Assembly: GCA_000004985.1 (NCBI GenBank)
Contig: GG739045.1
Direction: 5' to 3' (one strand)
From: Naegleria gruberi
Lineage: Eukaryota
DNA: 9,141 nt
The number at the start of each line of letters is the position of its first letter. Position 1 is the first letter of the stretch. The position numbers and the translations under genes are program-made. Positions 2,335-9,141 of this stretch are shown piece by piece. The notes under the pieces were generated by a model. That model was given only the letters and a program-made list of their open reading frames with translations, was not told the origin of the DNA and made no database searches.

Positions 2335-3221
2335 NNNNNNNNNNNNNNNNNNNNNNNNNNNNNNNNNNNNNNNNNNNNNNNNNNNNNNNNNNNNNNNNNN
2401 NNNNNNNNNNNNNNNNNNNNNNNNNNNNNNNNNNNNNNNNNNNNNNNNNNNNNNNNNNNNNNNNNNNNNNNNNNNNNNNNNNNNNNNNNNNNNNNNNNNN
2501 NNNNNNNNNNNNNNNNNNNNNNNNNNNNNNNNNNNNNNNNNNNNNNNNNNNNNNNNNNNNNNNNNNNNNNNNNNNNNNNNNNNNNNNNNNNNNNNNNNNN
2601 NNNNNNNNNNNNNNNNNNNNNNNNNNNNNNNNNNNNNNNNNNNNNNNNNNNNNNNNNNNNNNNNNNNNNNNNNNNNNNNNNNNNNNNNNNNNNNNNNNNN
2701 NNNNNNNNNNNNNNNNNNNNNNNNNNNNNNNNNNNNNNNNNNNNNNNNNNNNNNNNNNNNNNNNNNNNNNNNNNNNNNNNNNNNNNNNNNNNNNNNNNNN
2801 NNNNNNNNNNNNNNNNNNNNNNNNNNNNNNNNNNNNNNNNNNNNNNNNNNNNNNNNNNNNNNNNNNNNNNNNNNNNNNNNNNNNNNNNNNNNNNNNNNNN
2901 NNNNNNNNNNNNNNNNNNNNNNNNNNNNNNNNNNNNNNNNNNNNNNNNNNNNNNNNNNNNNNNNNNNNNNNNNNNNNNNNNNNNNNNNNNNNNNNNNNNN
3001 NNNNNNNNNNNNNNNNNNNNNNNNNNNNNNNNNNNNNNNNNNNNNNNNNNNNNNNNNNNNNNNNNNNNNNNNNNNNNNNNNNNNNNNNNNNNNNNNNNNN
3101 NNNNNNNNNNNNNNNNNNNNNNNNNNNNNNNNNNNNNNNNNNNNNNNNNNNNNNNNNNNNNNNNNNNNNNNNNNNNNNNNNNNNNNNNNNNNNNNNNNNN
3201 NNNNNNNNNNNNNNNNNNNNN
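2335..3221. other. Assembly gap (887 N)
   Basis: Run of N. Any ORF spanning it is an artefact. Confidence 1.
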
Positions 3222-4118: not shown

Positions 4119-4596
4119 TTTGGATTTTAATGATCAATTCGAAAGAGATCGAGATAATGTCGTTTTTTTTTAGAGTGGTGAAATAATGGAAAGTTGGCGA
4201 AACCAAAGAATTTAAAGTGATGGTCCTTGGGCAAGGAAACCGAAGCAAATTTGAAGGAGAAAATATTTCCAAACGTCGACATATTTTAAAAACTACATGT
4301 AAGGAAGTCAGTTACAACAAATTGACATTTTCGACGTTGTAATGTCATTTTTCCAAATTAGCACCTGTCAGCGAAATGTCATACAAAAACTGTAGATAAC
4401 ATTAATGTATTTTATTTTCAATTCTACAATCATTGAAGATTTCATCCCTTGATCAAAAAAACAACTCAATTTCATTTTCAACAATCTCTATTGAGGATTT
4501 CAATATCCTAATGAAATATATTCTTCGATCTTTCCTCTTCTTCTTGAAAGATTGCATGAATAGTTCAATTATTTACCATAGTTGACTTTACAATTC

Positions 4597-5237
4597 ATGA
4601 ACAGAAATATTACTCCACTCAAAAAAATGAATCAAGATCAAAATGCACTGCTATATGATAATTTTCCCTTCCACCGAAAAATATTGAACACCACCATCAC
4701 AACATGCCATTCTAGGATCATGATTAACAATTCACTTTATATGTTCCAACTCATTAAAGGAGAAAATATGATCAAGGTTTCTAGGGTGTCTTTTCTGGGT
4801 GAGGGTTTGGCATATAGAATTTACGAATATCAGAATGTGAGAATATACAATGAGGATGATGCTGATGAAAATTCACTTGTAGTTTTAACATTTATTGAAA
4901 TTGGAGAATTGAATGGTTATTTCTACATGTTTTCCGAATCTGAAGGAAGTGGCAGGAATTTAGAACAGGTTCATAGGTTGAAAATTATTGAAGAGAATAA
5001 TGCTTCTTCGATTCAAGTTGAGAGAATTTATAAGAGTTTTGAAACTTCGTATGTGAGAATTCTGAGTCCATTATTAGCAGATAGAGAGAGGAATTGTTTT
5101 TACTGGTTTGGTGGATATAGGATTAGAAAATCAACCAGTTTGAAGGATTGTATCAAGTTTAATGTGGAAACGTGTGAATTTGAATTTTTGACAAATTTTC
5201 AAATGGGATTTGTTTTACATTCTCAATCTTCATTGTT
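4597..5237 (+). CDS. Hypothetical protein, N-terminal ~214 aa (MNRNITPLKKMNQDQNALLYDNFPFHRKILNTT...FQMGFVLHSQSSL), truncated by the assembly gap. No confident family. Weak F-box-like LxxxFPFHRKIL stretch
   Basis: 656 nt of uninterrupted open frame (4582-5237) in AT-rich DNA where stops are expected about every 12 codons. In-frame ATGs at 4597 and 4627; the latter has an A7 context. The frame runs into the N run. Confidence 0.55.
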
Positions 5238-6470
5238 NNNNNNNNNNNNNNNNNNNNNNNNNNNNNNNNNNNNNNNNNNNNNNNNNNNNNNNNNNNNNNN
5301 NNNNNNNNNNNNNNNNNNNNNNNNNNNNNNNNNNNNNNNNNNNNNNNNNNNNNNNNNNNNNNNNNNNNNNNNNNNNNNNNNNNNNNNNNNNNNNNNNNNN
5401 NNNNNNNNNNNNNNNNNNNNNNNNNNNNNNNNNNNNNNNNNNNNNNNNNNNNNNNNNNNNNNNNNNNNNNNNNNNNNNNNNNNNNNNNNNNNNNNNNNNN
5501 NNNNNNNNNNNNNNNNNNNNNNNNNNNNNNNNNNNNNNNNNNNNNNNNNNNNNNNNNNNNNNNNNNNNNNNNNNNNNNNNNNNNNNNNNNNNNNNNNNNN
5601 NNNNNNNNNNNNNNNNNNNNNNNNNNNNNNNNNNNNNNNNNNNNNNNNNNNNNNNNNNNNNNNNNNNNNNNNNNNNNNNNNNNNNNNNNNNNNNNNNNNN
5701 NNNNNNNNNNNNNNNNNNNNNNNNNNNNNNNNNNNNNNNNNNNNNNNNNNNNNNNNNNNNNNNNNNNNNNNNNNNNNNNNNNNNNNNNNNNNNNNNNNNN
5801 NNNNNNNNNNNNNNNNNNNNNNNNNNNNNNNNNNNNNNNNNNNNNNNNNNNNNNNNNNNNNNNNNNNNNNNNNNNNNNNNNNNNNNNNNNNNNNNNNNNN
5901 NNNNNNNNNNNNNNNNNNNNNNNNNNNNNNNNNNNNNNNNNNNNNNNNNNNNNNNNNNNNNNNNNNNNNNNNNNNNNNNNNNNNNNNNNNNNNNNNNNNN
6001 NNNNNNNNNNNNNNNNNNNNNNNNNNNNNNNNNNNNNNNNNNNNNNNNNNNNNNNNNNNNNNNNNNNNNNNNNNNNNNNNNNNNNNNNNNNNNNNNNNNN
6101 NNNNNNNNNNNNNNNNNNNNNNNNNNNNNNNNNNNNNNNNNNNNNNNNNNNNNNNNNNNNNNNNNNNNNNNNNNNNNNNNNNNNNNNNNNNNNNNNNNNN
6201 NNNNNNNNNNNNNNNNNNNNNNNNNNNNNNNNNNNNNNNNNNNNNNNNNNNNNNNNNNNNNNNNNNNNNNNNNNNNNNNNNNNNNNNNNNNNNNNNNNNN
6301 NNNNNNNNNNNNNNNNNNNNNNNNNNNNNNNNNNNNNNNNNNNNNNNNNNNNNNNNNNNNNNNNNNNNNNNNNNNNNNNNNNNNNNNNNNNNNNNNNNNN
6401 NNNNNNNNNNNNNNNNNNNNNNNNNNNNNNNNNNNNNNNNNNNNNNNNNNNNNNNNNNNNNNNNNNNNNN
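5238..6470. other. Assembly gap (1233 N)
   Basis: Run of N. Confidence 1.
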
Positions 6471-6750: not shown

Positions 6751-6756
6751 TTTATT
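6751..6756 (-). promoter_or_regulatory. AATAAA polyadenylation signal abutting the sirtuin stop codon
   Basis: The minus strand reads gat tag aataaa cta. Confidence 0.45.
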
Positions 6757-7596
6757 CTAATCAATATTAATCACTTGCAGAGCATCAAATGAAGTATCAA
6801 CATTCTCCTCTTCTTCCAATTCTGTCATTAACAATTGCATAAACAAGTCAGTCTTACCAAAAATTCTGACAGTTGCCAATCTATCATATTCAGTTTTCTG
6901 TAAATTTACAATACACATCATTCCCTTATTATCTAGAACTTCAAGTGGGAATTCACAACTAGGAGTAACTTTCATACTTGTTCCAAGAACCAATGCAAAA
7001 TCACCCTTCTTTGAATGATCCATTGCTTGATCAAAATCCTTCTCAGGCAAATCTTCATCAAAGTGAATTATATTATCCTTAAGTCTGCCACCACATTCAC
7101 ACTTTCTTCCAGTAAAGTGCTTGGTCCAATCCTTTTCATTCTTACTAACATCAAATCCTCTCAAATATTCCTTATCACACTTGTTACAATATTCAACATT
7201 ATGAAGACCATCCACATTGGTCGATACGACATACTTTACATAGTCCTTCTTGACCAAATGTGTGATGGCATAGTGACAATAGGTAGGAACAGCTTGCTCA
7301 ATTTCCACACCTTCATATTCCTCAACACCATATTCCATTGCAGTCCAAACTCCTTTCGGCCCACGATAATCACTCAATTGTGCACTTGTTGAAATACCAG
7401 CTCCAGTATAAATCACTACATGTTTGGCTTCTTTCAAATAATTGGCCAGTTTTTTGACTTTTCTCTTGATGGATGTTTCACTCTCTTCGTGTTCTTTCAA
7501 CGAAGCTGGAAGTTCTTTTGGTTTGGCTGGTTCTGATGCTTTTTCGGAGGTTGTTTGGGATGAGGATTTGCTCTTCTTTTTGGATTGCTTTGGCAT
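6757..7596 (-). CDS. Class IV sirtuin (SIRT6/SIRT7-like NAD-dependent deacylase), intronless, 279 aa. Variant core lacking the segment that normally carries the catalytic His
   Basis: GAGISTSAQLSDYRGPKGVW aligns with the SIRT6 [20 protein letters not shown] motif. STNVDGLH aligns with SQNVDGLH. Zn module is CNKC...CEC. LVLGTSMKVTPSCEFPL aligns with ITLGTSLQIRPSGNLPL. IVNLQKTEYDRLATVRIFG aligns with IVNLQPTKHDRHADLRIHG. N-terminal K/S-rich basic tail. The stop TAG is followed directly by AATAAA. Confidence 0.85.
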   Translation of the reverse strand: MPKQSKKKSKSSSQTTSEKASEPAKPKELPASLKEHEESETSIKRKVKKLANYLKEAKHVVIYTGAGISTSAQLSDYRGPKGVWTAMEYGVEEYEGVEIEQAVPTYCHYAITHLVKKDYVKYVVSTNVDGLHNVEYCNKCDKEYLRGFDVSKNEKDWTKHFTGRKCECGGRLKDNIIHFDEDLPEKDFDQAMDHSKKGDFALVLGTSMKVTPSCEFPLEVLDNKGMMCIVNLQKTEYDRLATVRIFGKTDLFMQLLMTELEEEENVDTSFDALQVINID

Positions 7597-7829: not shown

Positions 7830-7901
7830 AGCAAATTGGCGCAGCGGAAGCGCGATGGGCTCATAACCCATAGGTCCTAGGATCGAAACCTAGATTTGCT
7901 A
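7830..7901 (+). tRNA. Initiator tRNA-Met (anticodon CAT), eukaryotic cytoplasmic type
   Basis: Cloverleaf: acceptor AGCAAAT/ATTTGCT with an A1:U72 pair. D stem GCGC/GCGC with loop AGCGGAA. Anticodon stem ATGGG/CCCAT with three G-C pairs. Loop CTCATAA. T stem CTAGG/CCTAG with T loop ATCGAAA (A54 and A60 instead of TΨC). These are all hallmarks of eukaryotic tRNAi-Met. A box TGGCGCAGCGG and B box GGATCGAAACC are present. A T7 terminator follows 4 nt downstream. Confidence 0.9.
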
Positions 7902-8016: not shown

Positions 8017-8227
8017 TTAATAGACAGCTTCTCCAGCATAAACTTGATTCTCAATTCCACCCTCTCCTTGAGCAATTTTGAAATATCCAGACATTCCCCA
8101 ATTTGCGCCCCATGAATTGGCAGCTAACCAATAATTAGAACCTCCCTCAACTCCAAATCCAATTAAGGCAACAGCATGTCCACCAAGAACTGTGCTTACA
8201 ACGTGTTTATAGACACCAGACTTGTAA
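8017..8227 (-). CDS. Cathepsin B-like cysteine protease (papain family C1), last exon: (G)[69 protein letters not shown]
   Basis: Contains the catalytic His (GGHAV) and Asn (ANSWG) motifs and aligns with human CTSB [25 protein letters not shown]...ANSWNTDWG. The intron is 42 nt (8228-8269), with donor GTGAGT and acceptor ttttctAG. Confidence 0.85.
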
Positions 8228-8269
8228 CTAGAAAAACATGTTAGAATATATGAAACAAATTAAACTCAC

Positions 8270-8641
8270 CCTGTAAGATCTCTGTAGACTGTGAAACCAG
8301 CCTGAACGCTGCCATATGTCATGATTGCAGTCTTGATATTATTGATACCTGTAATGTAACGAGTATTTTTGGCCTTATACTTGCTCATGGACATGGAAGC
8401 AATCTTGCATTGAGTTGGACAAGTACCAGAGGAGAAGGTTCCTCTTCCACTAGCATATGGAATACAAGTATCGAGAGGTGTTCCAGTATTTTCCAAAAAT
8501 GTCCAAGAATATTTCAAATAACCTCCTTGACAGGCCTTATTCATTGTATCGCATTGTACTTGATATTCTGGTGAGAGGACAACATTGGTTTGACCATTGG
8601 TGGCAATGCACAATCTATGAGCCAATACATAATTTGCAGAA
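8270..8641 (-). CDS. Cathepsin B-like protease, middle exon: (F)SANYVLAHRLCIATNGQTNVVLSPEYQVQCDTMNKACQGGYLKYSWTFLENTGTPLDTCIPYASGRGTFSSGTCPTQC...FTVYRDLT
   Basis: Aligns with CTSB ...ISDRICIHTN...CCGSMCGDGCNGGYP...[12 protein letters not shown]...C. Phases close exactly: exon 1 leaves tt, which with t8641 gives Phe to complete CGACWAF. The intron is 84 nt (8642-8725), with donor GTAAGT and acceptor tatgatAG. Confidence 0.8.
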
Positions 8642-8725
8642 CTATCATAATATTACCAAAAAAAGGAAAATTGTGTCGAATGAAATTATAAGTTGAAATT
8701 AATAAAATCAAATTGTAAAACTTAC

Positions 8726-9141
8726 AAAGCCCAACAAGCACCACATGTTTGTTGATCTCTAATTGCTGGAACACAACCTCTCCATTGAGTTCTTGCATCA
8801 AAATTCATGGGTATATCCATTCTAGTTTCAATATTTTCCATTCTTGGAGTGTCTTCATCAGTGCTCATCAATGAAAGACCAAATAGATTATCTCTAAGTT
8901 GTGAAATGGTCATGTTATCAAATCTAGAGTATTCAGTTGCCTTCCATCCATGAGTATGATTGGAATTAATTCTGTCAATCAAAGATTTGTCATTGACAGG
9001 AGTGTTGGCATGAGTGTGGTTGGCAATTGGATGAGTTGGATGAACAGGATGAGTGCTATTGTGCTTTGGTGGTAATGGTTTCTTTTTGTTTCCTTTGGAA
9101 AGTTCAATTGGAGTGACCATTTCAAAAAAACCAAACAGACA
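8726..9141 (-). CDS. Cathepsin B-like protease, first visible exon (5'-partial; frame is open to the window edge): ..CLFGFFEMVTPIELSKGNKKKPLPPKHNSTHPVHPTHPIANHTHANTPVND KSLIDRINSNHTHGWKATEYSRFDNMTISQLRDNLF...MNFDARTQWRGCVPAIRDQQTCGACWA
   Basis: The catalytic Cys motif QQTCGACWAF aligns with the C1 family QGSCGSCWAF. The propeptide KSLIDRINSNHTHGWKA aligns with CTSB LSDELVNYVNKRNTTWQAG. In-frame codons upstream of the first ATG (CLFGFFE) are open to position 9141. This suggests a signal peptide that starts beyond the window. Confidence 0.8.

Follow-up and report, generated by a model that had tools for sequence, protein, structure and literature searches.

The window analysed here is the whole of a small unplaced scaffold, 9,141 bp in length, of the Naegleria gruberi NEG-M draft assembly. 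The scaffold is composed of three contigs of about 2–2.7 kb each, set across two runs of N, which are read from the sequence at 2335–3221 (887 N) and 5238–6470 (1,233 N), have no strand and make up 23% of its length. Open reading frames that six-frame listings extend across both runs are artefacts. Since the scaffold is thin and gapped, few reads stand behind each of its bases. Nematode sirtuins had been proposed as the kin with which its sirtuin gene should be compared; this does not fit the source, which is Naegleria gruberi.

The sirtuin ORF occupies 6757–7596 on the minus strand. It encodes 279 aa from ATG to TAG, is intronless, and contains neither N nor frameshift. The AATAAA element is read from the sequence at 6751–6756 (minus strand), immediately 3′ of the TAG stop. 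Continuous DNA, an intact start and stop and the presence of AATAAA, all reported in the initial annotation, are thus confirmed on the sequence. The exact protein is already on record as XP_002668482.1 (EFC35738.1, D2W5B3), named ‘silent information regulator family protein’. Upstream of the sirtuin, an intron-containing gene for a cathepsin-B-like cysteine protease (XP_002668483.1) lies on the minus strand at 8017–9120. The 420-bp spacer between the two genes carries a tRNA-Met with the anticodon CAT at 7830–7901 on the plus strand, opposite to both of them.

A further open frame of 218 aa at 4582–5237 (plus strand) enters the 1,233-N gap and resumes after it to 6606, being convergent with the sirtuin gene. 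Its 3′ end is also predicted by a gene caller on the environmental contig described below (positions 1853–2281 there). As a candidate third gene of synteny it was queried with 203 aa, starting from an internal Met at residue 16; in a collection of 5.8 billion proteins, the annotated N. gruberi ones included, no homologue reached E ≤ 1e-5. It is either a non-gene in that frame or an orphan.

The sirtuin ORF scores 66.1 bits with the Pfam SIR2 family (PF02146), for which the cut-off is 24, the match being split in two stretches. In phmmer searches against the PDB, residues 39–261 are colinear with human SIRT7 (E 1.2e-38) and SIRT6 (E 1e-37). Both results bear out the initial placement of the protein as colinear with SIRT6 and SIRT7, and on the evidence of its sequence it is a class IV (SIRT6/7-like) sirtuin. 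The NAD-binding motifs GAGxS, (I/L)xD(F/Y)R and (S/T)(Q/T)N(V/I)DGLH are all present. The glycine-rich GAGIS motif is unbroken at 7390–7404 (minus strand, residues 65–69), and T64, G65, A66, G67 and S69 fall in nearly invariant columns of the class IV alignment. QLSDYR, a variant of the (G/K)IPD(F/Y)R motif, follows at 7363–7380 (minus strand, residues 73–78); it has Ser where Pro is usual and retains D, Y and R. STNVDGLH is likewise unbroken at 7201–7224 (minus strand, residues 125–132), and the alignments identify its H132 as the DGLH His that is not catalytic. The zinc module lies at 7093–7188 on the same strand, with Cys137 and Cys140 as a CxxC pair and Cys166 and Cys168 as a CxC pair. All four cysteines stand in invariant columns, so that the four-cysteine module is kept.

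What the protein does not have is the segment that carries the catalytic residue. In all sirtuins the catalytic His serves as general base and activates the hydroxyl of the NAD ribose; in SIRT6 it is His133. This His, placed in the ELHG(N) strand, is absent from the window ORF, where its column is a gap. The phmmer alignments show the same as a single gap of about 15–17 residues right after DGLH, spanning the catalytic-His segment. Compared with human SIRT6 and SIRT7 (PDB 3K35, 9GMK), the window protein is therefore alike in being colinear from about residue 40 to 261 at 34–36% identity (E 1e-37 to 1e-38) and in sharing GAGIS, NVDGLH, the four zinc cysteines and the GTS and NLQ motifs. It differs in lacking an equivalent of the catalytic-His segment, in the CxC form of its second zinc pair and in its short C-terminus.

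The extent of the loss is clear from an alignment of 122 sequences, made of the window ORF and 121 class IV relatives drawn from a collection of 5.8 billion proteins. From D(G/N)LH to the first zinc cysteine there are 25–27 residues in 121 of 121 relatives, and 9 (DGLHNVEYC) in the window ORF alone; the catalytic-His column holds H in every one of the relatives. Hence, the observation in the initial annotation that just NVEY separates DGLH from the first zinc cysteine stands. The segment is present in N. lovaniensis, in a second N. gruberi paralogue, in Willaertia magna and in all farther relatives. The deletion could have been lineage-wide, or the compact architecture a normal form shared by orthologues; with the segment intact in N. 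lovaniensis, in Willaertia and in 118 others, and the compact form in none of the 121 relatives, the deletion is neither lineage-wide nor a family variant.

Two further traits of the protein had been listed alongside the missing segment, and both are indeed present, but neither is an unusual mark of the lesion. The CxC second zinc pair occurs in 22 of the 122 sequences and is a normal variant of zinc spacing. QLSDYR is confined to three near-identical sequences, namely the window ORF, an intact 296-aa copy from the same NEG-M assembly and an environmental copy, while D-Y-R is the majority form in the clade. As the intact copy has it too, QLSDYR is independent of the deletion and is a trait of the gene itself.

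The intact copy is XP_002677986.1 (EFC45242.1, UniProt D2VDJ0). It is 296 aa long, is encoded on a scaffold of 441,990 bp and falls in the same 90% cluster as the window protein. The two are 99% identical across all 279 aligned residues and have in common QLSDYR, CxC, the intronless structure and a cathepsin-B-like neighbour. The intact copy differs by E in place of D141, by K in place of T258 and by the 17-residue segment with the catalytic His146. The loss had been called unusual for so well conserved a gene; this loses its force when the assembly also has an intact copy, 99% identical and set in the same gene neighbourhood.

The resemblance extends to the neighbouring gene. On the 441,990-bp scaffold the intact sirtuin is adjoined by the cathepsin twin XP_002677987.1, which is identical to XP_002668483.1 at 224 of 225 residues, the one difference being A/P. 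Both twins carry private substitutions (M, QWRGC, NTRYIT) that set them apart from three N. gruberi paralogues at 96% identity. The sirtuin and cathepsin accessions are consecutive on each scaffold (XP_002668482/XP_002668483 and XP_002677986/XP_002677987). At the protein level, the window thus appears to duplicate at least a two-gene block of the 441,990-bp scaffold with the gene order kept. We note that the cathepsin-B-like family has at least five N. gruberi copies, 95–100% identical, on four scaffolds (of 712,659 bp, with two copies, 350,200, 441,990 and 9,141 bp), which suggests that the gene was amplified recently or that the assembly contains more haplotype duplicates.

For comparison at the DNA level, an environmental contig served as proxy for the intact copy. 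This contig (L001) is a 2,281-bp N. gruberi-like metagenome sequence (ENA ERZ929261, run ERR1078381, project PRJEB11402; ENA/Logan), and it encodes a 296-aa cluster mate of the window protein (P0122). It is colinear with window positions 8414 to 6471 at 95–98% identity, covering the cathepsin end, the tRNA-Met and the entire sirtuin gene; this identity implies that an organism closely related to N. gruberi NEG-M was in that environmental sample. The tRNA-Met is 100% identical and the spacer flanking it carries indels of 8 bp and 14 bp. The L001 sirtuin is itself a mosaic, with D141 as in the NEG-M version of the window and K at 258 as in that of the main scaffold. Within the sirtuin coding sequence there is one structural difference: positions 1218–1268 of L001 (51 bp, GAAGATCTGG...GGAAATTGTT) are missing between window positions 7200 and 7199. 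The deletion aside, 7 of 840 nt are substituted, 5 of them synonymously (99.2% identity), and some 530 nt around the junction are identical.

The missing DNA is exactly 51 bp, for which the intact relative has GAAGATCTGGATTACCTAGAGATAAGCTTGCTGAATTACACGGAAATTGTT. It holds the coding of 17 residues together with part of the next codon (Y), and the net loss is 17 residues, the catalytic His included. In the window the junction lies at 7199–7200 (minus strand), inside codon 133, where the 51 bp are gone from CAT A/AT GTT (the slash marks the junction); the flanks read GGTCTTCATA on one side and ATGTTGAATATT on the other. The breakpoints on the intact side, CAT A/GA...TGT T/AT, leave no room for a shift of even a single base, so that the deletion is blunt, with no microhomology and no direct repeats. 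It had been described as an in-frame deletion between short direct repeats, the two LH dipeptides having collapsed into one; the direct-repeat part of this description fails, as the LH codons differ in the intact proxy (CTT CAT against TTA CAC) and the breakpoints lie elsewhere. Seven substitutions in 840 nt and perfect identity over about 530 nt mean that there is no pseudogene decay. The deletion is recent, and apart from it the gene is undecayed.

Two other origins for the missing 51 bp were rejected. A retrogene from an exon-skipped mRNA does not agree with the flanks, the tRNA and the intron-bearing neighbour, all of which are colinear with the intact locus. The 51 bp are not an unrecognised intron either: they code for the most conserved motif of the family, have no GT..AG ends, and the breakpoints cannot slide.

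The predicted effect on the protein was followed with AlphaFold2 models of both versions. In the intact copy (mean pLDDT 92.6, pTM 0.88) a helix at 131–134 and a strand at 142–144 precede His146. In the window protein (mean pLDDT 85.8, pTM 0.82) the strand 122–125 passes straight into the zinc-module strand 134–137, and the helix and strand of the intact model are absent; confidence falls to 79–89 across residues 121–160. On this model the Rossmann sheet of the window protein is predicted to be incomplete. As a whole, the model remains SIRT6-like, with a Foldseek TM of 0.76 to 3K35, and structures of Sir2Tm H116A and H116Y are among its Foldseek matches. AlphaFold2 is insensitive to destabilising deletions. 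The confident SIRT6-like fold of the model makes misfolding less certain. Because the general-base His and a strand of the Rossmann core are both gone, we infer that the product is probably inactive, without NAD-dependent deacylation, and destabilised. The first of the two fates considered in the initial annotation, a catalytically dead protein, is thus the probable one; the second, an enzyme with a repositioned His, does not agree with the alignment of H132 to the non-catalytic His.

We suggest that the small scaffold most likely represents the second haplotype of the cathepsin-B-like/tRNA-Met/sirtuin locus on the 441,990-bp scaffold. One blunt in-frame deletion of 51 bp would have stripped 17 residues from a class IV sirtuin, taking away the short helix that follows DGLH, the AEL strand of the Rossmann fold and, within ELHG(N), the catalytic His. 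The resulting null allele would be recent and masked by the intact copy, rather than moulded by selection into a pseudo-enzyme. Naegleria is described as for the most part diploid and heterozygous (PMC9928731), and it is a known class of artefact that haplotypes end up in small contigs of their own (PMC6267036). The window resembles such haplotigs (PMC6267036) in being a small, gap-ridden scaffold that repeats, at about 99–100% protein identity, two genes lying side by side on a large scaffold, in an organism regarded as a heterozygous diploid. With a duplicated block, heterozygous diploidy and known haplotype splitting taken together, an alternative-haplotype scaffold is the simplest reading. 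The literature searched, to which the genome paper (PMID 20211133) does not belong, holds nothing specific on haplotype scaffolds in the N. gruberi assembly. We consider a recent loss-of-function allele on the alternative-haplotype scaffold of a heterozygous diploid moderately probable, with the allelism judged from two adjacent proteins and the order of their accessions.

The deletion might instead have arisen in a shotgun plasmid clone, in base-calling or in the assembly of a thin Sanger contig, the divergent reads then being set apart as a small scaffold of their own and annotated automatically. The make-up of the scaffold speaks for this: 9.1 kb in three gapped contigs of about 2–2.7 kb, with few reads per base. 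The gene is otherwise undecayed, and the junction is seen in no independent sequence. In JGI metagenome contigs it had 0 matches, while a control 19-mer upstream of it had 10, all in unrelated genes or other sirtuins, which shows that this collection does not contain the locus. However, the scaffold differs from the main copy elsewhere as well (D141E, T258K and the A/P of the cathepsin), and D141 is common to the environmental relative. These extra differences, and D141 in L001, indicate that the scaffold derives from a genuinely distinct DNA molecule. The deletion is also exactly in frame, for which the chance is 1 in 3, and clone deletions usually occur between repeats, of which there are none at the junction. 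We therefore regard such an artefact as rather unlikely, though it keeps an appreciable share of the probability.

A very recent segmental duplicate would also give a second, nearly identical locus, with the paralogue retained as a dead pseudo-enzyme, for example as a dominant-negative protein or as a binder of acyl-lysine or NAD. Local duplication does happen here, as the neighbouring cathepsin family with its at least five copies of more than 95% identity on four scaffolds suggests, and the ORF is unbroken from start to stop, with AATAAA, the NAD motifs and the zinc cysteines likewise intact and an AlphaFold2 model that stays SIRT6-like. But with 2 amino-acid differences from the intact copy the duplicate would be too young for selection to act, its architecture is found in 0 of 121 relatives, and the predicted structure is without the Rossmann core strand. 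Such a paralogue is improbable in our view. It is more doubtful still that the 51-bp deletion marks a real expressed allele or young paralogue whose stable dead product works beside the intact copy, as a dominant-negative or as a chromatin- or NAD-binding pseudo-enzyme.

Finally, an active sirtuin using His132 of DGLH as a repositioned catalytic His is highly improbable. The local LH-N does resemble ELHGN, and since in sirtuin folds D129 and the catalytic His each sit where one of two neighbouring strands has its C-terminal end, His132 might come close. But in the alignments it matches the non-catalytic His of DGLH, which is invariant; the model lacks the strand by which the catalytic His is positioned, and a single scaffold shows the compact form.

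The compact form is thus unmatched among the relatives, yet the protein is not special, for only one small haplotype-like scaffold carries the lesion. The two proteins are in public databases under a Sir2-family annotation, and the deletion, private to one copy, does not make a new kind of sirtuin. For sirtuin biology the consequence is small, as the family, the gene and the exact protein record are already public and an intact copy is in the genome. XP_002668482.1 (D2W5B3) is counted separately, yet it most likely stands for the gene of XP_002677986.1 in a second haplotype (or in artefactual form). Sirtuin counts and alignments that include XP_002668482.1 mislead, and it should not be taken as an independent functional sirtuin of N. 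gruberi. If the allele is real, the laboratory strain NEG-M carries one heterozygous loss-of-function lesion in this gene.
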